Source of the DNA: an uncultured archaeon
GTDB lineage: Archaea; Asgardarchaeota; Hermodarchaeia; Hermodarchaeales; Hermodarchaeaceae
Length of the DNA stretch: 64,000 bases
Assembly (NCBI GenBank): GCA_964347045.1
Contig: CAYFXC010000003.1
Span: 38,701-102,700 of the forward strand
Direction: 5' to 3'
A program made the position numbers and the translations under genes. Every line of letters starts with the position of its first letter. Within the stretch, counting starts at the first letter, position 1. Below the pieces are notes generated by a model. The model did no database searches. It worked only from the letters and a program-made list of their open reading frames with translations, and was not told where the DNA came from. Below are positions 507-57,253 of this stretch, piece by piece.

Positions 507-715
507 TCACTAGCCAAATGCAAAGACTCGAGGATCTTGGTTTCCCTTCCCTATTTCACATCGTATGTTGTCGATTTTTTCTTGTTTACTTAGTCGTTCT
601 TTCAACCGAGTATTTCAGGAAATGCATTTAAATTCGCGCGATGTGTGCTAAATGTAGTGCTACTCCAGCCATGGATATCGCTAGCATTAACCTTCAAGAT
701 GGTGGAGACCTCACC

Positions 716-7609: not shown

Positions 7610-7780
7610 TCATATTCATCGGGGCACTGAACGTGTCCCATCGCATCTTTTATTGCGACAAGCAAGCATATTAGCTCAAAAAAACATCTCAGGAAAAACA
7701 AATAAAACCTCAATTTAATATTTTAGTAATGCGGGGTTATCAACCTTAGGCAGGGTAATTTGAAAAAGAGGTGTGCTTCA

Positions 7781-10700: not shown

Positions 10701-13700
10701 CTATCTATTATGTTACGATTACATTTAGTCGCACAAATTATACTACCCAATCTAATTACTTCGAAATAACAGTACGTCCGATTCATACCATCGGGTTCGG
10801 ACTTGCGGACTCTGTTTCTCTTCCTTGGGGTCAAAATGTAACTATCACTTTATCCTACAATGACACCGATCATAGTGATATTGCAATTTATGGTGCTGAC
10901 ATATCATTTGTTTCAACTGATGGATTCTTCAATTCTTCAAACGATATTCTGGGCTTCGACTATTGGCTTGTTATCAACCCAGACGGATCCTACACTTTGA
11001 TTCTGAATACAACAAGAGTCTCAGCAGGAATGCAGCCTTTCACACTCATAATTACCTTTAGTAAGACTCATTATGACAATTCTGAAGTGTATGTATCCTT
11101 CCAAGTCCGAGACAACCTCACAGTGCTTCAACGCCAGTCACTAATTCCGGGGACAAATGTACCCTGGGGCGACAATCTAACCATCATATTAACCTATTCT
11201 AATTTGGATGATAGCAACTCTCCGATTCCTGGAGCGATTATTGATTGTGATTGGGACGAGTTCTATTGGAGCTATTCCTACAATGCTACTTTGCAAGCCT
11301 ATGTTCTGGTAATCCGAACAATAAGTCGAACCGAAGGAAGCTATACAATCACAATAAATGCCGCGAAAAATCATTACCAAGAATTTACAATAATTGAGAA
11401 CTTCGTTATTCGAAAAATCCAAACTACCCTTGATGCGGATCCTGACTATATTCCAAATTGGCCATTAGGATTCAATGTAACAGTTCGTGTTGACTACTAT
11501 GACGCGGATCATGGGGGGCAAGTACCCTTTGCAGAAGTCGTGACTGATTGGAATGCAAGCTATTACTCGATTATTTTCTACGGAAATGGAACTTACGATT
11601 TAATCTTAAACACAAGCTGTCGGGGTGTGGGGAGTCATACAATTAACGTTACACTATGGCGCGATCATTATGCACAACGAACCGTTATAGTATCTTTAAC
11701 ACTGGTACCAATTCCGCTATTTGTTGAAATTCTATCCTCCTCGCCAGTGACAACTGAATATAATTCAACTAATTTTGTAGTAGTTACTGTTCGTGTAACA
11801 GATCTCTATGACCGCCTGATCAATGATTCCACAACAACATATCACTGGTTTGCAGGTAGCGGAACGATGACATTTATTGAAGCTGGTATATACAATGTCT
11901 CTTTCTCTGCTGCCGCTGATACTGGGTCATACGTGGTAACGGTTCAAGCCAACAAAACTGGTTATCAAATCGGTATTGGTTTCATTATACTTAACATTCT
12001 GCCCACCGATACCATCCTTAGCCCAATAACCTCAAGTCTTCAACTAGTAGTGGGTGAAAGCTTCGAAATTTCTATCTTATTTACAACCATATATGGGACG
12101 GGTATTGCAGATGCCAATATAACATATCTTTGGGCGCTAAACAGAACTGGCTCCCTAGCTTTTGTTGGTGGTAACACCTATAATGGCACGCTAGATAGTT
12201 CCGGATTAACAGCAGGACCCTACCTCGTCTATGTAACTGCAGGTGGTCCGAATGTCGTTGAACGTACAACAACTATCAGCGTTTTATTAGTTTTGATACC
12301 AACAGAACTCCAAGCCTTTCCAACGATCCAGGAAGTATATTATGGTGCAGATTTCATACTCCAAGTCTACTTCAATGACACCAATAACAATCTGCCCATA
12401 GATGGTGCAAATGTCTCCTGTATTTGGGGCACTCTAACCGGATATCTCCTACCAACAGGAACGCCAGGTTGGTACAACATTTCCCTATCGACGACAATTT
12501 ACCCCGTTGGAACTTACATGCTTACTCTTTCCGCGGATTTCGAGGGATATCAATTTGCCCTAGCATATGTTGACGTAATCATTCGCCCTCAACCGACAAC
12601 ATTAGACTTGGTATTAATCCAAACCTATTATGCACCACAAAATCTAGTAACAAATCAAACAGGAATTTCATGGCAGGTTCCTCGAGGTGAGCTTCTTATA
12701 TTGTACTTCAATTTCACGGATGCTTCAAACAATACTATTACTGGAGCAATTGGAACTTACAGCTGGACCTATGGTCTAGGGGTCCTTGAATTCACAAATG
12801 GGTTATATGTTGCCACCATAGACCTAACTCAGGCAACTCCTGGATATTACTCTCTTCTAATCACATTATCTCTTCAAAACTATGAAAGCGGTCAAAGCCC
12901 ATCCTATGACCTCAATGTAATTCCAATTCCCGCTGTAATTCAAGTTATTAACAATCCTGGAACCGTAGATACAGGAACTACATGGGACCTAGTAGTGTAC
13001 TATAATGATACCTATCACAATTTACCAATAATTGGTGGCAATCTCACAGTAACTATCCCTCAACTCAATTTCGAAAATATGGACATGCTTGACAATAGAA
13101 ATGGATATTATTCGTTTACTGTTCCTGCCCTCTTATTAGACAACAGACTCGAAATCGAAATAAACGCACCAGGTGGTTTACTATATGCTTCTGATACCGA
13201 ACAAATTATTGTCTATGTCAGACTGGGGCAAGTGGCTCAGGTTACTATAACACTTGGTCTTGTTGCCGCGGTGATTGGAATTGTCATGATTATATTGTGG
13301 TTAGCTTATACACGAGTCTTGGCAATTCCTTGGCTTGTCCGGAAGATGCGTAAAATGAGCCGAACCATTGACAAAGGAAAAACACCCAAACTTTCAAAGA
13401 GTGATGTTGGTCGGATTGGCTCTCGATCAGATTTGATGGCTCATATTGCCGAACCTGCCTATGAGACCATTAGAATACCAATTCCTGCAGCAGTCCTACC
13501 TGCGGTAATTGAACATGAAGAACGTTATGCAGAGGATGAAGCCATCTGGGCCGATTTAAAGAAATTGCCACAACTAGAATACGACCAAAAACTTGAATTA
13601 TTCCAAGAAATGAAACGCATCCCTGCGACCGAACGCGTATGGTTCCTCGAAGACCTAAAACAACAAATGGCTGATGGTACCCGATTTGCTCGGAAAGCCA

Positions 13701-14089
13701 AAGAGCCCACTCTTGCACCAGAGCTTGAAAAGGAAATAGAAGAACGATTGAAACAATTTCCCCAATTAAGTAAGGCGGAAAAAGACCGCATCACCAAACA
13801 ACTTCGTAATGTTCCCAAAGAGGAATGGGAGGAAGTATTCAACACTCTCGCAATTGCATCTAAACCAGAGGTTATTGAAGGTGATGAAGTTCTTCGTCCT
13901 GATGAATTACCAGCTATAACTGTAGAAGAACGGGAAAAATTACTTGAAGAATTGAAAGGGTTATCCGAGGAAGAACGGCGAAAAGTATTGCAAACATTTC
14001 GAGAGAAAAAAACCAAGGAAACTGCAGAAGGAGAGGTCGTTAAGGGTGAAAAAGAATTTGAAGTTGACGAATCAGACGACAAACAATAG
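7781..14089 (+). CDS. Giant surface glycoprotein, paralog 3, same architecture
   Basis: TTG 7781 after GAGGTG; signal peptide, Ig-like repeats, TM LGLVAAVIGIVMIILWLAY, tail DQKLELFQEMKRIPATERVWFLEDLKQQMADG plus two degenerate copies. Confidence 0.9.
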   Translation: MDKKISFLTLLALMAVIIFSSPLELNSYPTVMAASPPNSPYEGLGDSLDVTEFARNDSTLFSNGINGTAFSYLGSWYPSGYRGYYLHTSVSNLRRTEDPVPNGDFDQYDEPGNNWTLTESTGGLVKSIDNVTGGNPGYCLDTELKYGNVPNTAYAWIDNDFTYTSSITPDSLKLYFDIRFSEDVSKAGWLYVKVSVRYQAAEVGSWTNTTDLYSPTSWDSLSFPTAAVNGTVTIRITIEKRGGGSANTKGHIYFDNFRYVIGTDSKPSEVELMVNGNPVSDTFGNAGEVDIYADPSSKEQAQLAICWDSDESFQFTSPTYSDISFDYEYSMRIKSENPSAASTDFSNVADEAPTWNINYTIPSSRPPSGYTGYSYGLYLRSTWTLVEVRNSTNDLVPTTQYNYNATSQFFKLNEDIASVGDLFRVIASSLNYILDIFPQKSSSGLGPWTNISSSDYYVKGDWIRVLATLRPIGPSDNVADVSIFYPNGTIWNSDSTPGIDSSKNTITSIAWQINQMDSDNAGSQWQISVSFDNDTQCGMRAQYFTIVIETTAEKIDPDPGTRVLWGQTVFVNVTWANNDTGDYILDAAARIRYIDRNLQTRYENMTANGQGAYSLDFGTNLMSPSRTAKFYIEFFHYGYVNITGTQLTYTINLVNDISYTMVRPSQQTGPDEYTAETTSDEGYISQVKFYDLFEQAYVRNDTGAWSGNVRVNFTRYHWTETWTYITEGSFIPNASDPIIFEKIDSQYSGVSQVKYEVTMRIENAAWDYQQQNFTIIIRIVQIATDLDAVRTVISYPPTGDGWTQYNNNTDTYEVRIFWNENFNITIFYHFAENDTGITGATSNLLFGSLKRTLTEQANGFYNIILDTKDVGLGITDILVNASYPTYASQTIQIRLIVETRETELTKDYLGALVDLPYDDDFTVIFTYNDIVTGTPTAIIDATASIVGYPAGKYSVNNNGDGTYTITFWGNITETIYYVTITFSRTNYTTQSNYFEITVRPIHTIGFGLADSVSLPWGQNVTITLSYNDTDHSDIAIYGADISFVSTDGFFNSSNDILGFDYWLVINPDGSYTLILNTTRVSAGMQPFTLIITFSKTHYDNSEVYVSFQVRDNLTVLQRQSLIPGTNVPWGDNLTIILTYSNLDDSNSPIPGAIIDCDWDEFYWSYSYNATLQAYVLVIRTISRTEGSYTITINAAKNHYQEFTIIENFVIRKIQTTLDADPDYIPNWPLGFNVTVRVDYYDADHGGQVPFAEVVTDWNASYYSIIFYGNGTYDLILNTSCRGVGSHTINVTLWRDHYAQRTVIVSLTLVPIPLFVEILSSSPVTTEYNSTNFVVVTVRVTDLYDRLINDSTTTYHWFAGSGTMTFIEAGIYNVSFSAAADTGSYVVTVQANKTGYQIGIGFIILNILPTDTILSPITSSLQLVVGESFEISILFTTIYGTGIADANITYLWALNRTGSLAFVGGNTYNGTLDSSGLTAGPYLVYVTAGGPNVVERTTTISVLLVLIPTELQAFPTIQEVYYGADFILQVYFNDTNNNLPIDGANVSCIWGTLTGYLLPTGTPGWYNISLSTTIYPVGTYMLTLSADFEGYQFALAYVDVIIRPQPTTLDLVLIQTYYAPQNLVTNQTGISWQVPRGELLILYFNFTDASNNTITGAIGTYSWTYGLGVLEFTNGLYVATIDLTQATPGYYSLLITLSLQNYESGQSPSYDLNVIPIPAVIQVINNPGTVDTGTTWDLVVYYNDTYHNLPIIGGNLTVTIPQLNFENMDMLDNRNGYYSFTVPALLLDNRLEIEINAPGGLLYASDTEQIIVYVRLGQVAQVTITLGLVAAVIGIVMIILWLAYTRVLAIPWLVRKMRKMSRTIDKGKTPKLSKSDVGRIGSRSDLMAHIAEPAYETIRIPIPAAVLPAVIEHEERYAEDEAIWADLKKLPQLEYDQKLELFQEMKRIPATERVWFLEDLKQQMADGTRFARKAKEPTLAPELEKEIEERLKQFPQLSKAEKDRITKQLRNVPKEEWEEVFNTLAIASKPEVIEGDEVLRPDELPAITVEEREKLLEELKGLSEEERRKVLQTFREKKTKETAEGEVVKGEKEFEVDESDDKQ

Positions 14090-43771: not shown

Positions 43772-44167
43772 CTACTCTTCAGTTTTTTCCGCCTGCTCTG
43801 GCTCCTCTGATACTACGAATAAATGCTCATCATTCAAGGTGAAAGCGGCTAATTCAAACTTACCTGTCATGGTTATTGCTTTCTTTGGGCAAACCGCCTC
43901 ACAGGTTCCACACCAAATACAGCGGTCGAAGCGAAATTGGGGCTTCTTTTTGGTTTTAGTCTTCGTGGCTTCAACCATTTCGATGGCTGTTGCAGGGCAG
44001 TCGCGGCTGCAGAGTCCGCAGCCGGTGCATTTTTCGATATCGTGTTCGATTTTACCGCGGAGGCGTTCGGGGCGAACGGCTTCTTGAAAAGGATAGCGAA
44101 TCGTGGCAGTTTTTCGTCTGAGGACGGTGCCAAGAATTTCGCCTTCCATTGCTCCAGGTCGTGGCAT
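43772..44167 (-). CDS. NuoI/HycF-like 2x[4Fe-4S] subunit of a group 4 hydrogenase
   Basis: TIRYP, CTGCGLCSRDCP, CIWCGTCEAVCP. Confidence 0.92.
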   Translation of the reverse strand: MPRPGAMEGEILGTVLRRKTATIRYPFQEAVRPERLRGKIEHDIEKCTGCGLCSRDCPATAIEMVEATKTKTKKKPQFRFDRCIWCGTCEAVCPKKAITMTGKFELAAFTLNDEHLFVVSEEPEQAEKTEE

Positions 44168-44179
44168 TTTTTTACACTC

Positions 44180-45334
44180 CTAAGGTAAGATGGCGACAAT
44201 CCAGTCCATGATGAATGGCCAGGCTAAAAGGATGCCGACCATGAGGAGGCTGAAGGGAATAACCCATTTCCAGCTATCACGGGCGATTTGGTCAATTCGC
44301 CATCGAGAGAAGAGGGCTTTCATATTGGATAGGATCAAGACAATGGCGGTGGTTTTGACGATGAACCAGAAAGCGTAGTAAATGGCTGCAATTGCAGGAT
44401 TGAGTAATAAGGGCATATTGGTGATAATCCAAGCCATATAATGTCCAGAGTTGATGGTGATCCCATGCACGAAACCACCATTGGCAATGAAGATGAAGAA
44501 GATTTCTGGTCCAAGAGGGCCTCCCAGGAAAACGGCTGTACCCAATGCGGAGGCGAGGAGAACTTCAAAGTTATTGGAGAGTCGGAAGAAGGCAAGTTTC
44601 TTCCCGGAGAATTCGGTTTCCCAACCGCCAACAATTTCAGTTTCAGCAATGGGTGCATCAAAGGGTATGCGTTCGGCTTCTGCTTGTGCAGCGATCAGGA
44701 AGACAATGAAGAGTCCAATGAATGCTGGGTTAAAGATTAGGGGTAACCCAAGGTTTGCTTGGTATACGACGACGCCTGTAAGGCTCAAACTCCCTGCTAC
44801 CATTCCCGCCGCAAACAGTGCGAGGAGTAACGGAATTTCATATGCGAGCATCTGGACGATGCCACGTACTGCTCCAGTAAAGCCAAACCGGTTTGACGAT
44901 GACCAGCCGGCGATAAACAGCATTATGGTGAACATAGTGCTGAAGAAGCCGATCATAAGTAAATCGCCTTCAAAATACATGATGCCCGTTACTGTAAAGA
45001 ATGGCGTCTGAGAAATCGCTATCGGAACTAGCATAAGCACGGAGATGGGAATTGCCAAAGCTAGAATGGGGGTCAGCGTAAAGCCGATTTTATCTGCGGC
45101 TACTGGGGTTACATCCTCTTTAGCCATCAACTTGACAAAATCTGCGAAGGGTTGAAGGATGCCTCGCCAGCCTGTATGTAATGGACCGATGCGGTGGTGT
45201 TGGTCGGCATAGAATTTGCGGTCAATCCATTCAATATAGAAGGCATATCCTGTTAGGAACAGGAACCCAGGAAAGATTATAATCATCAGTAGTGTGACGA
45301 TTGCATTCAATGGTGGGGGTAATAGCACCTGCAC
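44180..45334 (-). CDS. NuoH/HycD-like membrane subunit
   Basis: RIGP, QPFADFVKL..KE, YEIP, ERIPFD.P.AETEIVGG, RIDQ. Confidence 0.92.
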   Translation of the reverse strand: MQVLLPPPLNAIVTLLMIIIFPGFLFLTGYAFYIEWIDRKFYADQHHRIGPLHTGWRGILQPFADFVKLMAKEDVTPVAADKIGFTLTPILALAIPISVLMLVPIAISQTPFFTVTGIMYFEGDLLMIGFFSTMFTIMLFIAGWSSSNRFGFTGAVRGIVQMLAYEIPLLLALFAAGMVAGSLSLTGVVVYQANLGLPLIFNPAFIGLFIVFLIAAQAEAERIPFDAPIAETEIVGGWETEFSGKKLAFFRLSNNFEVLLASALGTAVFLGGPLGPEIFFIFIANGGFVHGITINSGHYMAWIITNMPLLLNPAIAAIYYAFWFIVKTTAIVLILSNMKALFSRWRIDQIARDSWKWVIPFSLLMVGILLAWPFIMDWIVAILP

Positions 45335-45552
45335 ATTGCGCACTCTCCAGTGGGTCATCAATATGATTCGCTTCTGCTAAAAAAGCCTTTTACTACCACA
45401 AGATTTTGCAGACACACAAGTTATACGATACTTATAACCAAGAAAATTATAGAATAGTTCAAGCTGTGGTGAAACAATTGCTCGACTTTCTCCAAGCTGG
45501 GCAATGAATGGGTATCCTCTTTGAAAAGCGATAATGGGACGTCGAATAAGAA

Positions 45553-47059: not shown

Positions 47060-48103
47060 ATGAAATGTCCACTCAAGGATCAAGGACTTGAACGCGGAGC
47101 CTGTCAAACCAGAACCTGTGATGGTCAGTCACAGCCTGCCTGTCAGGTAACCCTTCGAAAAAACAAAAACGGAATGTTCGAACGACTTATACGATCTATG
47201 CATCTCAGTCGACCGGAAGACTACTTTTCCGTATACCAGAGTGGATGCAATCACACGTGTTTGAAATGTCATTCGGCGGAGTTCAGTAAAACAGCAAATG
47301 GCGAATGGATTTCCACACATGAATTAGCCCTCATTTCAAAAGACTATCGTCAAGAAGTAACTGTTTGGGAACCTCGAGAACGGGCAACCATGTGGCACGC
47401 AGGAACCCTTTGTAAGCATTGTGGATCCTGTCGACTCACCGGTCTTCACTCACCCCAATGCCCACAGACACTAGACCCAACGCAAATTACCCGATCTGTC
47501 CAAGGCTATGGTCCTGCACGCAATATCATCGCCTTTACTGGGGGCGACTTAGGTTGTCACCCTGAGTATTACGCTGAAGCAGCCCACGCCATCAAAACCG
47601 CTGCAGGAAACAATATGTGGGTGCTCTTCGAAACTAATGGGTATGCCTTAACACAACCGAATCTACAAATTCTCAAGGACGGTGGTGTCGATGCCTTCTG
47701 GCTCGACATCAAAGCCCACAATCCCAAGATATACAAAAAACTCTGCGGCACCTCCAATAAAACAGTCTTAGACTCCATATCGTTGAGCCATGATGCAGGG
47801 TTTGTGCTTGAAATCCTCACCCTCTACATCCCCGGATGGGTGGAAACCGACCAACACACCGCCATTGCCCAACTCATCGCTGAAACTGACCCCACCATTC
47901 CTACAACACTCCTCGCCTTCTTTCCAACCTACCACCTTTCCCACGAAAAACCTCCTTCTCTTCAAGAAATAGTCCAAAGTGCCCAAGCCATGCAACAACA
48001 AGGCCTAACCAACCTACGTCTAGGCAACATCGGCGTTTTTGTCAAAACCCAGTACGACTACGAATTTCTCACCACAAACTTGACAGACATATCCATCGGG
48101 TGA
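47060..48103 (+). CDS. Radical SAM protein (PFL-activating-enzyme-like)
   Basis: GCNHTCLKCH, FTGGD, ETNG, WLDIKA; extra Cys clusters. Confidence 0.88.
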   Translation: MKCPLKDQGLERGACQTRTCDGQSQPACQVTLRKNKNGMFERLIRSMHLSRPEDYFSVYQSGCNHTCLKCHSAEFSKTANGEWISTHELALISKDYRQEVTVWEPRERATMWHAGTLCKHCGSCRLTGLHSPQCPQTLDPTQITRSVQGYGPARNIIAFTGGDLGCHPEYYAEAAHAIKTAAGNNMWVLFETNGYALTQPNLQILKDGGVDAFWLDIKAHNPKIYKKLCGTSNKTVLDSISLSHDAGFVLEILTLYIPGWVETDQHTAIAQLIAETDPTIPTTLLAFFPTYHLSHEKPPSLQEIVQSAQAMQQQGLTNLRLGNIGVFVKTQYDYEFLTTNLTDISIG

Positions 48104-48169
48104 AACAAAAAATCTAATCATAGCTATCGGCATACTCGATGTTCACGACCCGATAAGGCCACCAAGCTA

Positions 48170-48279
48170 CTACCGACCCCAAGCTTTTCCTCTTTCAACT
48201 CTTCACGATTCTGCTCCTGAATCCACGTCCATGGCTTCTTCTCCTCCAATCCATAAAAATACCCAAAGATAATTCCGTT
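48170..48279 (-). pseudogene. Decayed duplicate of the hydrogenase large-subunit 3' tail
   Basis: Translates NGIIFGYFYGLEEKKPWTWIQEQNREE-(1-nt deletion)-ERGKAWGR-stop versus DRIILSYPDGKQEEKPWAWFQEKSREERNRIKAWRR-stop at 53857-53967; 19/36 identical by hand. Confidence 0.85.
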
Positions 48280-48397
48280 CAAACTGAACACGTAGCCTAA
48301 TTAGCCATCACCATAAACACCCCCATTTTTCTGCCATAACATTTAACAACTGATGCTAATCTGAAACATCATCATCACAGATTATTAGGGTAAGTCC

Positions 48398-49669
48398 ATG
48401 GTTCACCAAATCTTCAGACGGAATCTCGATAAATGCTGGAATTGTGGGTTTTGTACTGAAACGGTAGATTGTCCGAGTCCCCAAGTATGTATTGGATGCC
48501 AAGCATGCTACTTGGCATGCTATAGAGAAGCTATCGAACCAATTGAACAAACATTGGACAATGAAATTACAATTATGCTGGATGAAAAGCCTGTTACTGT
48601 ACCAAGCCAAGTCACTATTAAAACGGCTCTTGAAACGCTGGGCATCCGATTTTCCCGGTTTCCTGATTCACACGACCTATTTACCCCTTGCCAGACTGGT
48701 GGGTGTTATTCCTGTTTAGTTTCCGTTGATGGTGAAATTCTTCCCTGCTGTCACACACCAGTAAAATCGGGTCAACACATTCGAACAAAGATAGCCGACG
48801 ATTTCGTACCCCGCAGAATTGTTGGATGGTATAGCCCTCACCCAGTTGGCGGGGTTGGAACTCCGTGGAGTGCGAAAAATCTTGGCAGAACCCGGCACTC
48901 ATACATTGAAGTAGCTTGTTTCAGCGCAGGGTGCAACCTTAGATGTAAAACTTGTCAGAACTTTGATACAACCTATAATAGTCGTGCACCAGCCGTCACG
49001 CCCAATGAAGCTGCCGAAATCCTAACGAAACTTCGTCAGAAATCCCATGTCAACCGTCTTGCTATTTCGGGTGGTGAACCGACCCTCAACCGAAAGTGGC
49101 TGATCGAGTTTTTCAAGGAACTCAATCATCTCAACCCAGACCCGAAAGCCCGGTTGCATTTGGACACTAATGCCTCAATTCTGACTCCCGATTACATTGA
49201 TGAACTAATATTGGCAGGTATAACTGACATTGGACCTGATCTGAAAGCCGTTCAGGTTGCTACTTACCAAACAATCACAAATATTTCCGACCCTAATCTA
49301 GCCCAAAAATATCTGGATACATCTTGGGCCGCTGTCAAACATCTGGCCAATCATTATTATCCAAATCAAATCTTCATGGGTGTTGGATTACCTTACAACG
49401 CGGCATTCTTTCCCTCTCAACAACAGAAAGAAACCGAACTTCACCAATGGGGAACCCGACTACATGCCATTGATGATCGAATCCAAGTTTGCATTCTCGA
49501 TTACCGTCCAACCTTCCGACGCCGAGATATCCACCGTCCAACAATTGAAGAAATACGAGCTGTCAAGAAGTTACTCGAAGGAGTAGGACTCCAAACAGTC
49601 ATCGCCCAAACACAACTCGGTCACCTACCTCCCAAACAACCAGCGCCTGATCGTACACTGCCTCGATAG
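48398..49669 (+). CDS. Radical SAM protein with N-terminal 4Fe-4S and 2Fe-2S-like domains
   Basis: CWNCGFC, CIGCQACYLAC, CQTGGCYSC, GCNLRCKTC, SGGEP, DTN. Confidence 0.88.
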   Translation: MVHQIFRRNLDKCWNCGFCTETVDCPSPQVCIGCQACYLACYREAIEPIEQTLDNEITIMLDEKPVTVPSQVTIKTALETLGIRFSRFPDSHDLFTPCQTGGCYSCLVSVDGEILPCCHTPVKSGQHIRTKIADDFVPRRIVGWYSPHPVGGVGTPWSAKNLGRTRHSYIEVACFSAGCNLRCKTCQNFDTTYNSRAPAVTPNEAAEILTKLRQKSHVNRLAISGGEPTLNRKWLIEFFKELNHLNPDPKARLHLDTNASILTPDYIDELILAGITDIGPDLKAVQVATYQTITNISDPNLAQKYLDTSWAAVKHLANHYYPNQIFMGVGLPYNAAFFPSQQQKETELHQWGTRLHAIDDRIQVCILDYRPTFRRRDIHRPTIEEIRAVKKLLEGVGLQTVIAQTQLGHLPPKQPAPDRTLPR

Positions 49670-49782
49670 GGGCGTTCGAACTCACTGATGCATTCTAGCG
49701 AGATGAATGAAATCAGAGGCGCAGATAGACCTCTACCTTTCCAACCATTTAATTAGCTTTTTAGATAAAAGCGAAAAAAGAA

Positions 49783-50184
49783 CTACTCCTCTTTATCAAA
49801 ATTGAGGGAGACCGAATTAATACAATAGCGTAACCCCGTCTTTTCTCTCGGGCCATCATCAAACACATGTCCAAGATGCCCCCCACAATTCTTACATAGG
49901 ACTTCTATTCGTCGCATACCATGCGAAAGATCGAGTTTCTCTTCAATTTTGTCTTTATCCAAGGCCTCATAGAAGCTCGGCCAACCACAACGCGAATCAA
50001 ATTTGGCTTCCGATGAAAAGAGTTCCACACCACACCCCGCACACTTGTAAGTACCCTTCTCTTTATAGTTCCAATACACACCACTAAAAGGTCGTTCTGT
50101 GCCCTTCTCGCGCAATACCCGATACTCTTCTTTTGATAATTTCCTCTTCCACTCTTCTTCGGATAACTCTCTTGCCTTCTTCAT
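49783..50184 (-). CDS. msrB: Peptide methionine-R-sulfoxide reductase
   Basis: GTERPF, CxxC twice, GWPSF, HLGHVFDDGP, RYCINS. Confidence 0.96.
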   Translation of the reverse strand: MKKARELSEEEWKRKLSKEEYRVLREKGTERPFSGVYWNYKEKGTYKCAGCGVELFSSEAKFDSRCGWPSFYEALDKDKIEEKLDLSHGMRRIEVLCKNCGGHLGHVFDDGPREKTGLRYCINSVSLNFDKEE

Positions 50185-50201
50185 TTCAATCTATTATCTA
50201 G

Positions 50202-50591
50202 CAGCGACAAATCACTAATTGCCTTTCGCAATTACTAGCACCAACTGACTCGGAATCCTTCCTCAGCTGGTATGATTCAAGGAGATCCGAACTTGATGAG
50301 TGGTTCTTCGAAAGCCTAGAAAGAATGAAACTAGAAGTAAGCGAATCTGGCTACGGCAATGTGAAACTATCACGACCCTTCGATATTGAATATATACGGC
50401 GATTCTTCCAAGACATGGACGTCTATACAGAAGCCAACCTGGCCAGCATCATCGTGAAAAAGAATAGCAATATCTTCATCTATGCAGAACCAAACGACAG
50501 CCAAAGAATCGCCTTCGGCCCAGTCATGGACTATGAGCTCCTCGTCTTAGTCTTCAAATACATACGACAGGTCATGACCCGCAACGCATAA
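50202..50591 (+). pseudogene. Probable 5'-truncated gene fragment
   Basis: Frame is open and protein-like for ~40 codons upstream of ATG 50325 (ESFLSWYDSRRSELDEWFFESLER) with no start codon, ending beside the msrB start. Confidence 0.5.
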
Positions 50592-50649
50592 AGCCCAAGA
50601 AGATCTAATCCTTCTCTAAGTTCACTTTCAGACATTGGTCAAAGTTCCT

Positions 50650-51606
50650 CTAGGAGAGTTTGGTTTGACGTAGTTTTGTTGAAGGTGTTTCACTCAGTTC
50701 CTCTTCATTCATGAGATTGCTGATAGAAAGGTTGATGTCATCTACCGCGGTGCGATTGAAGGTGACTAGGCCGGCTTCCCAGGATTGTCCTCCGGTTGAT
50801 GTTGGGATGAAATTCATTGATGTGATGAGTGCGATACGTCGATCGATAAGGATAATTTTTGCATGAACCCTGTCATTCTTAATCAAATTTACTCCTGCCT
50901 TCTGGAGCCGGTTATGGCATTTCATTTTTGCAGTCTTATAAACCTCGACTCGGTCAAGTTCTGGTGGACGAGTGATAAGAGTCACGTTTTTACCCTTCTG
51001 GGCTGAAAAACGGATTGTATCACTGAGATCACAATCTTGGACAAAAGGATTTACAACAATAACTTCTGTTTTCGCTAAGTCAATGAGATTTTTAGATAGC
51101 TGATCCAGCTTCGACCCTGTCAGGTAAAAATGCTCTGCGTTCATATCGAATTGAAGTTTTAAAAGATGAATCCACTTCTTGATCCAAGCAATGAGCTCGT
51201 CTTGTTGTTCCTCCTTGAAAATGCCTTGAACAGGTTTCTCAATTTCTTCTTGCGGTTCTTCTTCTAATGGTTGAGTATGTATCTTCAAGAATTGTTGATA
51301 TTCCCTATTAAGCTCAGCGCGAAGTGTGTAGGTCTCATTGGGTTGCTTTGTAATCTCTTTGGCATCAGACAGCTCTTGCAGGACATCATTAAGGGTTTGA
51401 CGTGAGAGGCCTGTAATATCGCGAATTGTTCCCCAGGGAAGCGGACCATATTCCGCAAGAACTCTAATCACCCATCCCTTCCACGTGCCCCAATAGGTTG
51501 GTTTTTCTCCCTCGTGGCTTTTTCCCAGTATGTTTCGCCAGTCCGCAATGATTTTTTCTTTAATCTTCTTCGCGCCTTCAACAATTTGCTTACGTGGACC
51601 CACCAT
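50650..51606 (-). CDS. Winged-helix plus single PLD/HKD nuclease-like domain protein
   Basis: HTH WGTIRDITGLSRQTLNDVLQEL; VHAKIILID....ITSMN...EAG. Confidence 0.8.
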   Translation of the reverse strand: MVGPRKQIVEGAKKIKEKIIADWRNILGKSHEGEKPTYWGTWKGWVIRVLAEYGPLPWGTIRDITGLSRQTLNDVLQELSDAKEITKQPNETYTLRAELNREYQQFLKIHTQPLEEEPQEEIEKPVQGIFKEEQQDELIAWIKKWIHLLKLQFDMNAEHFYLTGSKLDQLSKNLIDLAKTEVIVVNPFVQDCDLSDTIRFSAQKGKNVTLITRPPELDRVEVYKTAKMKCHNRLQKAGVNLIKNDRVHAKIILIDRRIALITSMNFIPTSTGGQSWEAGLVTFNRTAVDDINLSISNLMNEEELSETPSTKLRQTKLS

Positions 51607-51822
51607 ATTCCACACACCTCACATCTAGTACTTTTCTCAACGAAAATACTATAAGAAACTGCTTACAGCCACTTCACACTCTACTGGTAGTTGAAAAATC
51701 ATTAGCTCCTCTCCTTTTTTCGATAAAAGTGTGTTAATGCTCCTCTAATTCTGGAAAACCAGCCGTAACGCATATAAAATAGTCAAAATACGCGCACCAC
51801 TCGCACTCCTCTCATCCGAATT

Positions 51823-51841
51823 TGGCGTCTTAAATACGCCA
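51823..51841 (+). promoter_or_regulatory. Inverted repeat enclosing the TATA box of the HTH-LAGLIDADG gene
   Basis: TGGCGTCTT-A-AATACGCCA, 8/9 matching arms, 18 nt before ATG 51860. Confidence 0.55.
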
Positions 51842-51859
51842 CTAAGAGGTCACCAGTGG

Positions 51860-53830
51860 ATGACCGATTCCCAAAATCAACCTCAACATGCTCCGCATCC
51901 CCCAACTTCTTTTCTTCCCCGTTCTACACACAGCCCCGAAGCTCAACACCTTCTCAATATCTATGGATTCACCGCTTGGAATACTCTCGAACGCGACCTC
52001 AACCGCCACCCCTATCTTAGACACCGCACTACCTTCCCCCTAGCCTACACACACGCCCTCTGGCACCGTATCCTCACTGCTGCTCGTAATGACGGACACC
52101 TCACCGACACCACCTACAAATCCCTCGAAACTATCACCGGCATCCCCGCTGGACGACTCCGCGACTGGCGTCTCGGCGAAAAAGAACCCCACCTCGAACG
52201 CACTCTCCAAATCCACGAAACCGCCCGACAATACTGGGAACACACCCTCCCCCAAGAAGCCAAACAACACCTCATTGATCCCTCCCTTGTCTACACCACC
52301 TTCCACCCCCTCCTTGACCACACCGAAACACATACTCTCGAAGCCCCTACCACCGGCATCAAAACCCTCTATCACCACAACAAAAACCAACGCCTCATAA
52401 TCGCCGAACTCAAACCCTACCACAAAACCGGACCCCAACAACTCCGCACCATCGCCCACGCAATCATTGAACATCGATCTGAACTCGAACACAAACTCAC
52501 CAAACGGCTAAATCTCCCCAACACCCACGAAGAACTCCGGATCGCCGTCGACCACGGCACCCTCTACCTCTGGCGCAAAACCACCCACCCCGACCACTGG
52601 CTCAACACCTATAGAAACGAACTCCTCTACCTTACACCCAAAATCAAAGAAGACCTCATCAACAAGGCACGACGCCACCTCAACGTCAATACCCAACAAC
52701 TCGGACAACTCCTCGCCCAACTCACCGACCACAAAGGTGAACGAAGCCACACTCCACGAGCCGCACCCTACGAACTCACACACTTCAGTCCCAGTCTCCA
52801 CGGCAACACCCTCCACCTTCTCCTCGACGCAGCCGACCAAACGGTCGATGCAATCAAACCGTATATTACCCAAATCGGACGCATCGCCAACCACGAAAAA
52901 GGTGGAGGTATCCAAAATCCACGTTTCCCCCAAGGCAGAGAACTCGACATATTACGCGCACGTCTTCTTGCTATCGGACTCAGCGATTGTCATATCCACA
53001 AAGACACTCGTGTAATGTCTTATCATGAAAACGATCTAAATCGCATTAGGTATGTGACTAGTTTATTCCGAAGACTAGGGGATTGTACTTACAAACTTGA
53101 ATTCCTCCGGGGAAATCGCACCCGTCTAACCATAACTGCTCCTGTGGGACGGCTTCTCGAATATTGGGGCGTCCCACGCGGCGATAAGCATCTTTACCCT
53201 AATGCTAGATTACCCGAAGTGGTTCGTTTGGGGAAACCCAAAGTGAAGCAAGCCTACCTCGCTGAAGTAATCCCCGAAGATGGATTTTTTGTCAATCGCG
53301 CAGGTGCTTACAAATTTGGGATTAAACGAGCCCAAATTCTCGACGCCGGTTTAAAATCAAAAATTTATGGCTATCCTACAAAAATTACTCCGAAACATAC
53401 AGGTTTGATTAAAAAATATGGAGTAAAGCGAAAACAAGCAATACGGGACAATAGACCACGAAACGAAATAACATTGACAAAAGGGAGGTTAAAAGAATTA
53501 ATCAGAAAAGGAGAAACGCAAAAAGATCAACACATAGCTCAACAATTGGAAGTAATAATCAAGACAAATCCTTCTCAGTTACTTAAAGACGAAAAGGAGC
53601 TGGCAGAAAGCTTAGGGATCAAGATGCAAATGATTTTCAAAGAACTTAAACTCCAAGAATCTGGGCGAGTCTCTACCCTCTGGGAAATCTATACCAAATC
53701 CTCAACAGACACTCTTCAATGGGCAACCCTTGCAGAACCAAGCTCTGGAGAAAAACAGAGTGCAGTGAGAGATTGGATTATCAAATACCAAGGAAAGAAT
53801 TCTATAGATTCTACTAAGGCGGAGCTATAG
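51860..53830 (+). CDS. Free-standing HTH plus two-motif LAGLIDADG endonuclease-like protein
   Basis: HTH YKSLETITGIPAGRLRDWR; motif 1 LLAIGLSDCHI (~52964); WGVPRGDK...RLPEVV linker; motif 2 AYLAEVIPEDGFF (~53252). Confidence 0.72.
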   Translation: MTDSQNQPQHAPHPPTSFLPRSTHSPEAQHLLNIYGFTAWNTLERDLNRHPYLRHRTTFPLAYTHALWHRILTAARNDGHLTDTTYKSLETITGIPAGRLRDWRLGEKEPHLERTLQIHETARQYWEHTLPQEAKQHLIDPSLVYTTFHPLLDHTETHTLEAPTTGIKTLYHHNKNQRLIIAELKPYHKTGPQQLRTIAHAIIEHRSELEHKLTKRLNLPNTHEELRIAVDHGTLYLWRKTTHPDHWLNTYRNELLYLTPKIKEDLINKARRHLNVNTQQLGQLLAQLTDHKGERSHTPRAAPYELTHFSPSLHGNTLHLLLDAADQTVDAIKPYITQIGRIANHEKGGGIQNPRFPQGRELDILRARLLAIGLSDCHIHKDTRVMSYHENDLNRIRYVTSLFRRLGDCTYKLEFLRGNRTRLTITAPVGRLLEYWGVPRGDKHLYPNARLPEVVRLGKPKVKQAYLAEVIPEDGFFVNRAGAYKFGIKRAQILDAGLKSKIYGYPTKITPKHTGLIKKYGVKRKQAIRDNRPRNEITLTKGRLKELIRKGETQKDQHIAQQLEVIIKTNPSQLLKDEKELAESLGIKMQMIFKELKLQESGRVSTLWEIYTKSSTDTLQWATLAEPSSGEKQSAVRDWIIKYQGKNSIDSTKAEL

Positions 53831-53856
53831 AAAATGCTGAGAGGCAATCAAGGCAA

Positions 53857-55062
53857 TTAACGGCGCCAAGCTTTGATTCGGTTCCGTTCTTCTCGACTCT
53901 TCTCTTGGAACCATGCCCAGGGCTTCTCTTCTTGCTTCCCATCGGGGTATGAAAGTATAATTCGGTCAGTGCAGGAGAAGCAGGGGTCTATCGAAGCCAG
54001 GGCGATGGGGATGTCGGCGATTTTGCCGCCTTTGAGCATTTCGATGACGCTGGGGATGTTGGCGTAGGTGGGGGCGCGGGCTTTGTGGCGTTCGGGTTTG
54101 TCGGTGCCGTTGCTGACGACGTAGTGGAGGACTTCGCCGCGGGGGGCTTCGAAGGTGCTGAGGGCGTGGCCGGGTGGGATGCGGCGGGGGGTGCGGGTGC
54201 TGATGTCGCCTGTGGGGAGGGTGGTGAGCCAGTGGGTGACGGTGGTGCAGGCGTCGAGGGTTTCGAGCATGCGGACGACGACGCGGCCGGCGACGTCGCA
54301 CATGTCGGAGGTGCGGACTTCCCAGGTGGTGCCGAGGGTTTCTTGGTAGGGGGTGCGGGGTTGGGTGGCGCGGACGTCCCAGTCGATGTTGGAGGCGCGG
54401 GCGGTGGGTCCGGTGGCGCAGAGGGCTTTGCCGACGTCGGTTTTGAGGATGCCGACGCCGATGGCGCGGTCGAGGATCGTTTGTTCGGCTAACACGAGTT
54501 TGATGTAGTGGTTGACGCGGTCTTTGATTTTTTCCAGGCGGTCTACCATGCTGGGGATTTGGCTTTTCTCGATGTCGTGGCGGACGCCGCCGATGATGTT
54601 GTTGGCGTAGTTGACGCGGTTCCCACAGATTTCTTCGATCATGTCCATGCTTAATTCGCGGTCCCGCCAGGAATAATGGAACAGGGTATCCCAGCCGATT
54701 TCGTGGCCGGCTATGCCGAGCCAGAGGATGTGGCTGTGGATGCGGTTGAGCTCGTTCATGATGGCACGAATGTACAAACCCCGTTTGGGAACATCCAAGT
54801 CCAGAATCTCTTCGACGGCTTGAACATATGTTGTGGTGTGGGCTTGAGAGCAAATCCCGCAAATGCGTTCGGCGAGGTAAATGTTTTGGCTAAAACTTCG
54901 ACTTTCAAAGGCTTTTTCGATGCCGCGATGGACATAGCCGATTCGCGCTTCGACGTCGACAACAATTTCTCCGTCGACGGTGATGGTGAAGTTTTCCGGC
55001 TCCTTGAGTGCGGGGTGTTGGGGACCGATGGGGATGGTCATCGTTGTGGGTGGTTTAGCCAT
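53857..55062 (-). CDS. Group 4 [NiFe]-hydrogenase large subunit (HycE/EchE/MbhL-like)
   Basis: GPQHP, HRGIEK, L1 ERICGICS.AH, EAPRGE, L2 DPCFSCTDR plus 34-aa C-terminal extension. Confidence 0.94.
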   Translation of the reverse strand: MAKPPTTMTIPIGPQHPALKEPENFTITVDGEIVVDVEARIGYVHRGIEKAFESRSFSQNIYLAERICGICSQAHTTTYVQAVEEILDLDVPKRGLYIRAIMNELNRIHSHILWLGIAGHEIGWDTLFHYSWRDRELSMDMIEEICGNRVNYANNIIGGVRHDIEKSQIPSMVDRLEKIKDRVNHYIKLVLAEQTILDRAIGVGILKTDVGKALCATGPTARASNIDWDVRATQPRTPYQETLGTTWEVRTSDMCDVAGRVVVRMLETLDACTTVTHWLTTLPTGDISTRTPRRIPPGHALSTFEAPRGEVLHYVVSNGTDKPERHKARAPTYANIPSVIEMLKGGKIADIPIALASIDPCFSCTDRIILSYPDGKQEEKPWAWFQEKSREERNRIKAWRR

Positions 55063-55113
55063 AGTGGGTCAACTACCTGAAAGCTTTCAGTGTAGTCACT
55101 TCATGCCTTTTTC

Positions 55114-56355
55114 TTCCTTAAGAAATTAACCGTCAAACAAAGTTATACCCGGCTTTATATACCACGGCTGGGCTTTGAAGACCATCAACGAGGCCGAAAT
55201 GATTCCAAACTTTGAGGTTAGATTGCTCTGTAAGAGTGGTTGGATGGGTGTCCCACATTTCTTTGAATCGAGAAAAAGCATGGTATTCAAAATGCAAAAG
55301 ATTAGTTGTTTGGTTTTTTAGATAGGCGTGTGTAGCCGTAGATAATGACTAAGGTGATGCTGTAGATGGAGTACAGTATAATGATAGCAAGAAAGTACCA
55401 TTGTAACTGAATGAGACCTAAGATTTCTACGAATAGGGCAAGTGAGAAGTTGAACGAAGCGTGGAAAATAATGGCGCCCAATACGCTGCCATTGGTGTTA
55501 TTTACAATCCATGTGATAATGATGGATATGAACACAATTAATATGATGAAACCTAGAAAATTAAGGAAATCAAATTGTCCCTCCTCAAGTCCAAGTAGCA
55601 GATAAATGGGTAAATGCCAGAATCCCCAGAATACCCCAAGAATGAGGCTTGACCCTAAGGCGTTAAACCGTGATTGCAGGCGTGGTAATGCGAATCCCCG
55701 CCAACCCAGTTCTTCTCCAGTAGCACCAATCACCACACTACCAATTAACCAAAACAAACCAATAATCCCGTCAAAGGGCATATGAGGTCCAGGGATTGGA
55801 TTGCCAAGACCTATGTATAGCCCTATGGTAAGAAGAGCAATCGCGAAAGGAGAAAAAGCTGCAAGATACCAACCAATTCCGATTCTCCATATCCCCATTT
55901 TTCCTACTAATTTCCTGATTCCGTTCCATTCTTTCAGAATTAATAATATCACGATGAATGCGGCAATGCTTGGAGCCCAGGGAGGAAGAAGTTGGAGCAC
56001 AGGAAGTGGTATTACTACCGCAATACCACTTGCCCCAATAAAAAGTACAAAAGTTAGAACAAAGAACCACAAGAGAACAGATCCACTCGAGGATATCCGT
56101 GTTTCAGTGGCGGTCGTTTCAAGTGTCATAATATTTCAAGGCAAAACAATTGAAAGTTATTCAAATACCTTCATAAACCGGCTAGTTCAGAATTTTCTAT
56201 GACAAATCTAACCTTCTTTACAAGTTTTATTACTGTAACCTAGGTGTTGGTCTGAAAAATTTCGAAACGATCTATTGTCTGGCTTTTTGGTACCAAGGTA
56301 ATTTGGATTTGGCCAATGGTTTCCCTAAGAAATTAACTGTCAGACTATGATATAC
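55114..56355. repeat. 35-bp imperfect direct repeats (55114-55148, 56321-56355) flanking the CPBP gene
   Basis: ttcc.taagaaattaac.gtca.ac.a.g.tatac, 29/35 identical. Confidence 0.75.
55302..56129 (-). CDS. CPBP (type II CAAX/Abi) intramembrane metalloprotease
   Basis: EELGWRG, WGFWHLP, HASFN motifs. Confidence 0.92.
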   Translation of the reverse strand: MTLETTATETRISSSGSVLLWFFVLTFVLFIGASGIAVVIPLPVLQLLPPWAPSIAAFIVILLILKEWNGIRKLVGKMGIWRIGIGWYLAAFSPFAIALLTIGLYIGLGNPIPGPHMPFDGIIGLFWLIGSVVIGATGEELGWRGFALPRLQSRFNALGSSLILGVFWGFWHLPIYLLLGLEEGQFDFLNFLGFIILIVFISIIITWIVNNTNGSVLGAIIFHASFNFSLALFVEILGLIQLQWYFLAIIILYSIYSITLVIIYGYTRLSKKPNN

Positions 56356-56450
56356 TTGATTATTTTTAGGGCGCATTCTGGTCATGAAACCCCTAGAACC
56401 CTTTCTCGTCTTTCTAAAATTTAGATAACGAGTATTTTACTAGTTCATAG

Positions 56451-56486
56451 AAAAAAGATTGACAGGTGCCCCCAAGAGGGGACACC
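56451..56486 (-). terminator. Hairpin plus T tract downstream of the small membrane gene
   Basis: GGTGTCCCC-tctt-GGGGGCACC then TGTCAATCTTTTTT on the minus strand. Confidence 0.55.
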
Positions 56487-56507
56487 AATGAAGGAAGTTC
56501 CCTTAAT

Positions 56508-56876
56508 CTACCTAAAAGCGTCTCTGACGAAGAAAAGATAGATGACGATGATGAGCGGGATGGCCACGACGATCAATTGTGAGAAGTCAAGAAAACCAGA
56601 ATTATAGAAACCATAGATGCCAATGATTAGGGCAATAATGTTGTAGAACATTGTGATCATCCAGGCCCACCCTTTCAGACCCCAGAGTCCCCAGAAGAGA
56701 ATAAGACCAATGATTCCCCAGATAATCATGAATGCACCGATTGCCATTAAGATTATCCCAATAATTGGGATGGCTAAGCCAGCCATCAGTGAGAGAGCAC
56801 CAATCGCAAGCATTGCAATTGCGCCAAGTAGTTGTAGAATGGCGATGATAGTTACGCCCGTTGGACGTTCAGCCAT
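56508..56876 (-). CDS. Small 4-TM membrane protein (RPTGVTI...GLW.LK.WAW...V+..F type)
   Basis: Four hydrophobic helices; GGTGA RBS before ATG 56876. Confidence 0.8.
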   Translation of the reverse strand: MAERPTGVTIIAILQLLGAIAMLAIGALSLMAGLAIPIIGIILMAIGAFMIIWGIIGLILFWGLWGLKGWAWMITMFYNIIALIIGIYGFYNSGFLDFSQLIVVAIPLIIVIYLFFVRDAFR

Positions 56877-57253
56877 TTTTTTCACCAATTTAGTTTTGGA
56901 CTATGAATTACCTTACAACAGAAGCTACTTCTGTTATAGAAGTAATTATCCCTCGGTCCTACTATTCTCCTTATAAATTAGGCAGGTCCGTCAAAGGATT
57001 CAAAGAAAAGCTTCTTTTTTTCTTAAACACAAGAGTTTTTCTCACAAATATTTCTCAACGTAGTATTCTGAACACCAACCAATTTGAATTCAACAAGTAA
57101 TACTTGATGCGGATTCAAATGGGGTCCAGAAATCTGAGAAAGACATTTGAGCGATACCTCATTTAATGCGTCTCCCCAGAAGCTTTTGTTAACTCTCAAG
57201 CGTCTTAAATAGGAGATAATCCTAACAGTCTCTAGTCGTGGAGAGTACGAAAT

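Follow-up and report, generated by a model that had tools for sequence, protein, structure and literature searches.

In the chromosome of an uncultured Asgard archaeon (Hermodarchaeaceae), a [NiFe]-hydrogenase large-subunit gene is joined by what is probably an integrase-free selfish element of the homing type, consisting of a replacement gene tail and the gene for a free-standing LAGLIDADG endonuclease. The locus was analysed in a stretch of 64,000 nucleotides (contig CAYFXC010000003.1, positions 38,701 to 102,700), which we refer to as the window and to which all coordinates without a genome or locus handle refer. The genome, here called G000, is a 2.58-Mb metagenome-assembled genome in 83 contigs with a completeness of 89%. 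The parts of the proposed element and its host gene in the window are the following:

53857-55062, minus strand: complete [NiFe]-hydrogenase large-subunit gene (401 amino acids; L1 motif RICGIC, L2 motif DPCFSCTDR, C-terminal extension of 34 amino acids).
53986..55062, minus strand: body of the large-subunit gene, codons 1-359, the host gene and proposed left homology arm (Pfam Complex1_49kDa and NiFeSe_Hases).
53857..53985, minus strand: live tail, Pro360 to stop, the replaceable and element-linked part (Cys361 and Cys364 of DPCFSC, TDR and the 34-amino-acid extension).
51860..53830, plus strand: free-standing LAGLIDADG endonuclease gene P0002 (656 amino acids), so assigned by fold and motifs, convergent with the hydrogenase gene.
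48170..48278, minus strand: stranded old tail, a pseudogene fragment covering codons ~366-401 plus the stop codon (nhmmer E 5.5e-11).

The presumed exchange of gene ends was traced by searching 40 related genomes with the hydrogenase protein, after which the loci were fetched for array analysis. The searches returned the full gene plus extra downstream matches that were confined to residues ~355-401. Between 1 and 4 old tails per locus were identified in ten genomes, eight from genus g1 (G001, G003, G007, G008, G011, G012, G013 and G014) and two from genus g2 (G016 and G017). No remnant in any genome started before profile position 10 (Asp359), and the homology ended at the stop codon. Every well-kept old tail spanned the segment from the Pro codon of DPCFSC to the stop codon. 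In at least 10 remnants the homology began with the middle base of the Pro360 codon, and 7 read A/CN TGY, with the stroke at the start of homology. The swapped segment is Pro360 to stop, a total of 42 codons that include those for Cys361 and Cys364. An identical breakpoint, located at the Pro and Cys codons of DPCLSC, was observed in the non-orthologous group 3c MvhA hydrogenase genes. A tandem duplication of the whole gene, which had been raised beforehand as a competing source of the remnants, was rejected, since no remnant in any genome extended upstream of the Pro codon of DPC.

The decayed hydrogenase tail about 5.6 kb downstream of the live tail had been claimed in a preliminary description made from the sequence of the window, and was borne out here. 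A DNA profile of 13 live tails matched the minus strand, the same strand as the live tail, over profile positions 32-141, corresponding to codon 366 to stop. The E-value given above was obtained in a search space of ~200 kb, and values of 2.1e-12 in the local 8.9 kb and 2e-5 with tblastn were also recorded. The stranded tail was 68-71% identical to the live tail and contained an in-frame stop upstream and a 1-nt indel near its end. The synonymous differences between the two tails (Pro CCA/CCC, Gln CAG/CAA, Arg CGT/CGA) were present as described. The homology started just past the L2 motif, 6 codons after the Pro boundary, and the 5' side was decayed. The earlier placement of the homology limit at the L2 motif therefore stands for this remnant, but not for the better-kept copies in the relatives, which start at the Pro of DPC. 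Comparisons with 23 tails gave identities of 61-74% and no close relative, and neither flanking DNA nor identity to the 23 tails revealed a clear relative of this remnant in G012 or G007. No second remnant was found in the window beside the start of the endonuclease gene or upstream of msrB with a relaxed profile at E-values up to 200.

The large subunit was classed as a group-4-type [NiFe]-hydrogenase, and its orthologues in 14 genomes of the genus were 81-87% identical in amino acid sequence. The gene has the L1 motif RxCGxC, the L2 motif DPCxxCxx(R/H) and a C-terminal extension, and the genome contains a gene for a maturation endopeptidase of the HycI family (G000:C1:240266-240622; 74 bits against a cut-off of 23). 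It is therefore plausible that the extension is removed on maturation by a cut presumed to lie after Arg367. The junction is located eight codons upstream of this presumed cut, and the two C-terminal cysteines that serve as Ni ligands are therefore exchanged together with the pro-peptide. The live tail is under purifying selection, with ratios of nonsynonymous to synonymous substitutions (dN/dS) of 0.05-0.3, and is thus not freely disposable. The suggestion that only a disposable pro-peptide is replaced needs correcting in this sense: the pro-peptide is swapped, but together with both Ni-ligand cysteines and within a constrained tail.

The gene order between the two tails was as previously described, and so was the gap of 26 nt between the stop codon of the endonuclease gene (53830) and that of the hydrogenase gene (53857). 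The 656-amino-acid protein had no Pfam match up to an E-value of 5 and no NCBIfam match, and the family is too divergent for the current curated LAGLIDADG models (LAGLIDADG_1/2/3 and related). An AlphaFold (AF2) model built from six orthologues was confident for residues ~357-650, which form a double LAGLIDADG domain with two half-domains of the monomeric, two-motif type, in which halves of the order alpha-beta-beta-alpha-beta-beta-alpha pack against each other via the LAGLIDADG helices. All 15 Foldseek matches in the PDB at E-values of 0.001 or lower were LAGLIDADG proteins. Structural alignment with I-DmoI, I-Tsp061I, PI-PfuI, the Tli VMA intein endonuclease and WhiA gave Z scores of 14-16.6 and root-mean-square deviations of 2.1-3.3 Å; for the four endonucleases the deviations were 2.1-2.8 Å over 160-192 residues. 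Motif 1 (AIALSD(G/C)HI, with D376) and motif 2 (EVIPE(D/E)G.F, with D/E474) are located ~97 residues apart, and both acidic residues were present in all full-length members of a 31-sequence alignment; in enzymes of this class such residues, at the C-terminal end of each LAGLIDADG helix, are ligands of the metal. By its modelled fold and its motifs we identify the protein as a putative double-motif LAGLIDADG endonuclease, in agreement with the preliminary description, even though the curated families do not recognise it. The dN/dS values of the endonuclease orthologues ranged from 0.26 to 0.45.

The N-terminal ~345 amino acids, encoded by 51860-52900, are conserved across the family, some members of which reach 1600 amino acids. 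Folded alone from 23 sequences, this domain was modelled with a mean local confidence (pLDDT) of 89 and a predicted template-modelling score (pTM) of 0.85. It had no convincing match in the PDB (best Foldseek E-value 0.43; best Z score 4.9 against all representatives). A weak likeness to an XRE-type helix-turn-helix (HTH) at residues ~259-339 was its sole match, so the HTH previously assigned to this protein is at best weak and limited to that stretch. A word-based search returned 22 homologues, all from Asgard sources, with names that point to Promethearchaeota, Hodarchaeota, Hermodarchaeia and Thorarchaeota. An exhaustive search of a library of 1.8 billion proteins returned 281 clusters at 50% identity, of which 131 had E-values of 1e-30 or lower and many had longer N-termini. 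In its distribution the family resembles mobile DNA: matches were found in 14 of the 18 other genomes of family f1, to which the window's genome belongs, and in 0 of the 22 genomes of other families in the phylum. The numbers ranged from 0 to 11 matches per genome in f1, many of which were fragments or located at contig ends. The window's genome contains one copy.

Orthologues of the 656-amino-acid open reading frame (ORF) were present in seven genomes, in all cases convergent with the hydrogenase gene and located 0-92 nt from its stop codon. More distant members of the family were linked to other host genes. Seven contigs contained a 40-45% identical paralogue that was convergent with the gene for the group 3c MvhA large subunit, at a distance of 7-26 nt from the stop codon in L042, L043, L046, L047 and the P0021 contig and of 60 nt in L056, while a 158-amino-acid ORF separated the two genes in L041. 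Of these contigs, 4 carried 1-3 stranded MvhA tails. The last 42 codons of a gene for a FAD-linked oxidase were stranded just past the start of the adjoining paralogue (E 5e-13), and the last 20 codons of an EtfA-type gene were stranded beside a paralogue (E 3e-6). For the RuBisCO large subunit, the last 86 codons were stranded, with 80% amino acid identity (E 1e-50), and here the paralogue was co-directional with the host gene rather than convergent. This locus is organised as follows (L072; also found in L071, which is G018:C74):

2-1018: RuBisCO gene.
1106-3082: endonuclease paralogue.
3936-4196: stranded end, preceded by a DUF6602 gene.

Five kinds of host gene thus combine a duplicated end with a member of the endonuclease family, namely the orthologous hydrogenase (7 genomes), MvhA (at least 5 contigs), FAD oxidase, EtfA and RuBisCO, which substantiates the linkage between LAGLIDADG homologues and duplicated tails that had been proposed from the window. 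Another arrangement was found at uvrB in L053 (G004:C119), where the 5' end of the gene is duplicated:

5480-5791: uvrB 5' fragment (103 amino acids).
5897-7861: endonuclease paralogue.
10059-12071: full-length uvrB.

The fragment ends just past the YYDYF motif, and its first 75 aligned residues are 77% identical to the full copy. Perhaps this is a variant of the element type that replaces the head of a gene instead of its tail. It was also noted that paralogues abut the 3' ends of MTHFR-family, DUF4268 and GNAT/SCP2 genes in L051 (G016:C47; 4227-6599 and 6596-7711), L061 and L060; no remnants were detectable within these short contigs.

The backbone of the locus in the genus is Lon-(CAAX protease)-hydrogenase-variable region-msrB-NuoH-NuoI. 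An empty site was identified in G002, in which msrB follows 110 nt after the hydrogenase stop codon and neither a remnant nor an endonuclease gene is present. Many of the old tails contained stops or frameshifts and a few were still open (L030 r2 and copies in L033). Since old tails were found on either side of msrB, the entire spacer between the hydrogenase and NuoH genes is best read as an accreted array. The minimal arrangement, in which the live tail is followed by the endonuclease gene and then directly by an old tail, was seen in eight loci (G003, G011, G012, L041, L042, L047, L052 and L057), which makes a tail plus an endonuclease gene, ~2.1 kb in the relatives, the autonomous unit. The cargo of the arrays included genes for a flavodoxin, an F420-type oxidoreductase, a TPR-nitrilase fusion and an acyltransferase-family protein. 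A gene for a 453-amino-acid protein by the live tail in G008 was considered as an alternative driver and rejected; its product is a repeat protein that is secreted and held in the membrane by a C-terminal anchor, and the gene was classed as cargo.

Between the endonuclease gene and the stranded tail, the window contains the following genes:

50650..51615, minus strand: passenger gene P0003 for an HTH and phospholipase D (PLD)-family protein, NucT/DrmC-like (Pfam PLDc_2 and weak MarR_2; weak NCBIfam DrmC, DpdK and NucT).
50325..50591, plus strand: ORF of 88 amino acids, possibly no gene (no Pfam or NCBIfam match).
49783..50184, minus strand: msrB (Pfam SelR, 1.7e-54).
48398..49669, plus strand: gene for a radical SAM protein with an N-terminal 2Fe-2S domain (Pfam).

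The distribution of these genes differed. The PLD-family gene was patchy, being present in 2 of the 12 other genomes of the genus that were searched, and the radical SAM gene was common only to G007 (87% amino acid identity) among the genomes searched. The msrB gene was located downstream of the hydrogenase gene in 11 loci, at 82-88% amino acid identity, and since it was found there in every genome of the genus examined, it is an early captured gene or an old neighbour and not recent cargo. The 5.7 kb between the two tails is a layered array and not, as had been assumed, one element; the integrase-free and endonuclease-linked character of the region was upheld. The copy in the window is intact yet looks long resident, with one old tail that is still recognisable.

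Two cases provided evidence of movement. In G012, the body of the hydrogenase gene (codons 1-312) grouped with the G000/G004/G013 type, and a clade with G006 was rejected by the approximately unbiased (AU) test (p 0.0003), whereas the tail grouped with G006 with a support of 100/99.8. A still-open tail of the body-matching type was stranded 4.3 kb downstream in the same genome. The discordance between tail and body was thus seen in one species and was not shown for the window's own allele, in which no excess synonymous divergence of the tail was found relative to the unskewed first 150 codons. The second case is a 1.5-kb unit that was 95% identical in G008 (L027, 9790-11279) and G001 (L032, G001:C31, 1-1490), while the flanking hydrogenase and msrB genes were only 85% and 82% identical. 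The unit consists of the gene for the 453-amino-acid secreted repeat protein and an old tail, and the identity ends exactly at the 3' end of the old tail, at its stop codon. This shows one recent transfer of the unit between species, and it fits a recombination event resolved within the old tail. As this unit carries no endonuclease gene, units without such a gene do move.

LAGLIDADG endonucleases of this type cut both DNA strands at a specific target of 14-40 bp. We propose that the endonuclease would cut a naive hydrogenase allele inside the sequence GAY-CCN-TGY, which encodes Asp-Pro-Cys in the Ni-binding L2 motif, and that the break would be repaired from an element-bearing allele, with the gene body as the left arm and the stranded downstream tail as the right arm. 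The recipient would keep its own body and gain the donor tail, the endonuclease gene and the intervening DNA, and its former tail would become the next stranded copy. Repeated rounds would stack old tails and passenger genes, with the newest closest to the gene, and units that lack the endonuclease gene could travel in trans. We infer the cleavage, the exact cut position, the allele-specific resistance and the repair pathway from the pattern of breakpoints and remnants.

Several observations weigh against this proposal. The junction amino acids are the same in empty and element-bearing alleles, so that allele resistance would need synonymous differences, and no consistent synonymous signature of resistance that sets filled apart from empty alleles was found at the junction in 13 alleles. 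Each array contains one endonuclease gene, and no endonuclease pseudogenes were detected between old tails (tblastn, E 1e-3); most units are therefore without an endonuclease gene and their insertion is not directly explained. G006 carries the endonuclease gene, yet no detectable remnant, and in the window the only remnant lies beyond msrB and the radical SAM gene, with none next to the start of the endonuclease gene. The tail of G012 is close to that of G006 (87%) and the endonuclease gene is not (71%), which is a misfit to strict co-transfer; moreover, the group used for the AU test was picked after the identities had been seen. Finally, the endonuclease gene mostly tracks the species in genus g1, with a synonymous divergence (dS) of 0.34 between G013 and G003 compared to 0.41 for the hydrogenase body. 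Because of this largely vertical inheritance, recent spread of this endonuclease lineage is not established.

Such vertical inheritance would also be expected of a fossil or domesticated element, in which the LAGLIDADG protein has settled into a role in DNA binding or regulation like that of WhiA, or does no more than maintain itself, and the arrays reflect past events. The ORFs are intact at the same site in 7 species at the dN/dS values given above, the dS between G013 and G003 is similar to that of the host gene, WhiA is among the best structural matches of the LAGLIDADG domain, and the sole remnant in the window is old by its identity of 61-74% to every tail. We nevertheless regard this explanation as unlikely: no full-length member has lost either of the catalytic acidic residues, in contrast to WhiA, the copy number varies from 0 to 11 per genome with fragments, some remnants in the relatives are intact with open frames, and the 95% identical unit in G008 and G001 moved recently.

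Integrative islands are known to insert DNA that is flanked by direct repeats of the 3' end of a gene and to accrete in tandem. The direct 3'-end repeats around the inserted DNA, its tandem accretion and the miscellaneous cargo of the arrays are all typical of such islands, for which a tyrosine or serine integrase, encoded elsewhere or lost, would act on an att site at the gene end and the attP copy would restore the gene, as at tRNA genes. No recombinase families were found among the ORFs of the arrays in the window, G008 and G013, however, and neither did any unit examined contain one, for which reason an integron or integrase reading was rejected for these arrays. Apart from the LAGLIDADG gene, which turns up beside host genes of five unrelated kinds, no gene recurs, and the breakpoint falls in the same motif in two non-orthologous hydrogenase classes, which leaves the island explanation highly improbable. 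Even less credible is a programmed store of alternative C-terminal tails, silent cassettes that would vary the hydrogenase pro-peptide. The open frames of some stranded tails (L030 r2 and the copies in L033) would agree with such a store, but most copies contain stops and frameshifts and decay without constraint, the hydrogenase tail is presumably cut off on maturation, a gene for a HycI-family protease being present, and the same pattern is seen at enzymes that have no processed tail. A homing-type element with a replacement tail accordingly remains the explanation that we favour.

A codon-usage footprint was observed at the junction. The third positions of hydrogenase codons 151-360 (53985-54615) comprised 29 A, 167 C, 13 G and 1 T, an extreme skew towards C-ending codons, while the ordinary genes in the window had third-position T frequencies of 0.21-0.40 (mostly 0.26-0.36) and third-position C frequencies of 0.14-0.41. 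The tract stopped exactly at the junction, and the live tail had normal codon usage. The same tract, of varying length, was found in other array-bearing genomes and was absent from the empty allele of G002, and a similar gradient of skew was seen ahead of the junction in the MvhA and EtfA hosts. The part of the endonuclease gene that encodes the N-terminal domain showed a corresponding skew that reached as far as the domain boundary, in this case on the coding strand of the endonuclease gene, and the 400 nt beyond the old tail (47800-48200) were mildly skewed. These three segments were the only ones in the 64 kb with a keto skew above 0.3. Synonymous divergence within the tract was 5-8% between G000, G013 and G004, a low value that cannot tell convergence from conversion because the codon choice is near-deterministic. 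It is tempting to connect the skew with recurrent break repair at the junction, but no single simple model could be fitted to all skew patches.

Other genes of the same hydrogenase were found at a distance:

43772..45361, minus strand: NuoH-like and NuoI-like subunit genes (Pfam NADHdh and Fer4).

These are located 8.5 kb from the large-subunit gene in the window and directly behind it in the outgroup G025 (locus L040). Around 53857-56900, neither a small-subunit (NuoB-like) nor a NuoC-like gene adjoins the large-subunit gene, whose upstream neighbours encode a CAAX protease and Lon. Four NuoB-like genes are located elsewhere in the genome, one of which (G000:C4:136823-137158) has no large-subunit match on its contig, C4. 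With no small-subunit gene beside the large subunit and NuoB-like genes elsewhere, the hydrogenase gene set is scattered. At the other end of the window, two very large adjoining ORFs of 2322 and 2109 amino acids were noted on the plus strand (641-14089).

Taken more broadly, and only tentatively, a large family of end-replacing homing elements may have gone unrecognised in the Asgard archaea, where it would amount to an integrase-free system for gene capture and exchange. The DNA between a live end and its stranded copy would form a cassette open to transfer in trans from one species to another, the active-site codons of hydrogenases, RuBisCO, EtfA and UvrB would serve as landing pads, and the breaks may leave a strand-specific mutational footprint in the form of C-ending tracts. 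Besides other core enzymes, the genes occupied include two classes of hydrogenase that play a central part in the hydrogen-based metabolism proposed for the lineage, and in these the element is found at the codons for the Ni ligands. It would account for hydrogenase gene sets that are split by accessory islands, for mosaic tails, and for the integrase-free accumulation and inter-species movement of genes. The family is also a source of natural endonucleases with targets that the genome itself reveals, and of a new DNA-associated domain with a confident model. Our search of the literature identified no report of end-replacing homing in archaea or bacteria.

Parts of this pattern are shared with known mobile systems. 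Integrative islands and integrons resemble the arrays in their site-specific accretion of cargo, their target 3'-end repeats and their newest-proximal order, but here an integrase and attC-type sites are absent, the repeat consists of the end of a protein-coding gene and the associated enzyme has a nuclease fold. The free-standing homing endonuclease genes of T4-like phages are located next to a conserved target and spread by break repair with co-conversion of the flanks, a process known as intronless homing. Unlike the elements described here, they are intergenic, and the target gene is neither duplicated nor partly replaced. Closer parallels are the mORF hybrids of fungal mitochondria, found in atp6 of Allomyces macrogynus and in atp6, atp9, cox2 and nad3 of Glomus, in which a LAGLIDADG or GIY-YIG endonuclease ORF brings a foreign C-terminal piece and the native C-terminus is left as a downstream duplicate (Beaudet et al. 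2013, PMC3630166). The mORFs are organellar, usually run in the direction of the host gene, often in its reading frame, and represent single events without cargo arrays, whereas the genes studied here are convergent and chromosomal.

The closest likeness is to the WHO elements at the aldolase gene FBA1 in Torulaspora and Lachancea yeasts, with whose published model the anatomy agrees in each point. In the model for these elements, a sensitive allele is cut and repaired from the element allele via the downstream fragment, so that the 3' end is replaced and older units are stacked; such end-replacing, non-splicing homing has been described as a third category of homing element, so far in budding yeasts (Coughlan et al. 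2020, PMC7282813; Osborne et al. 2026, bioRxiv 10.64898/2026.08.13.744650). In both systems a LAGLIDADG gene is located directly behind a host gene that is essential or conserved, and each homing event replaces, or in the archaeon would replace, the 3' end of this gene. The former 3' ends are pushed downstream, where their 5' ends mark the cut site and the fragment serves as a recombination arm, the newest unit is nearest to the gene, and the host gene's 5' part differs in its history from the 3' part. The systems differ in that the host here is an archaeon, 42 codons are replaced, passenger genes are stacked between the fragments and several host genes are used. WHO clusters contain up to nine endonuclease genes, compared to one per array here, and cleavage by WHO has been proven experimentally, whereas here it is deduced from sequence. 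Furthermore, the archaeal protein has neither the Hint/intein half nor the zinc finger of the WHO, HO and VDE proteins, and instead contains the ~345-amino-acid N-terminal domain without a PDB match. On this reading the element works like WHO and the mORFs and is not homologous to them, so that end-replacing homing follows the same logic in Asgard chromosomes with a protein of unrelated architecture.

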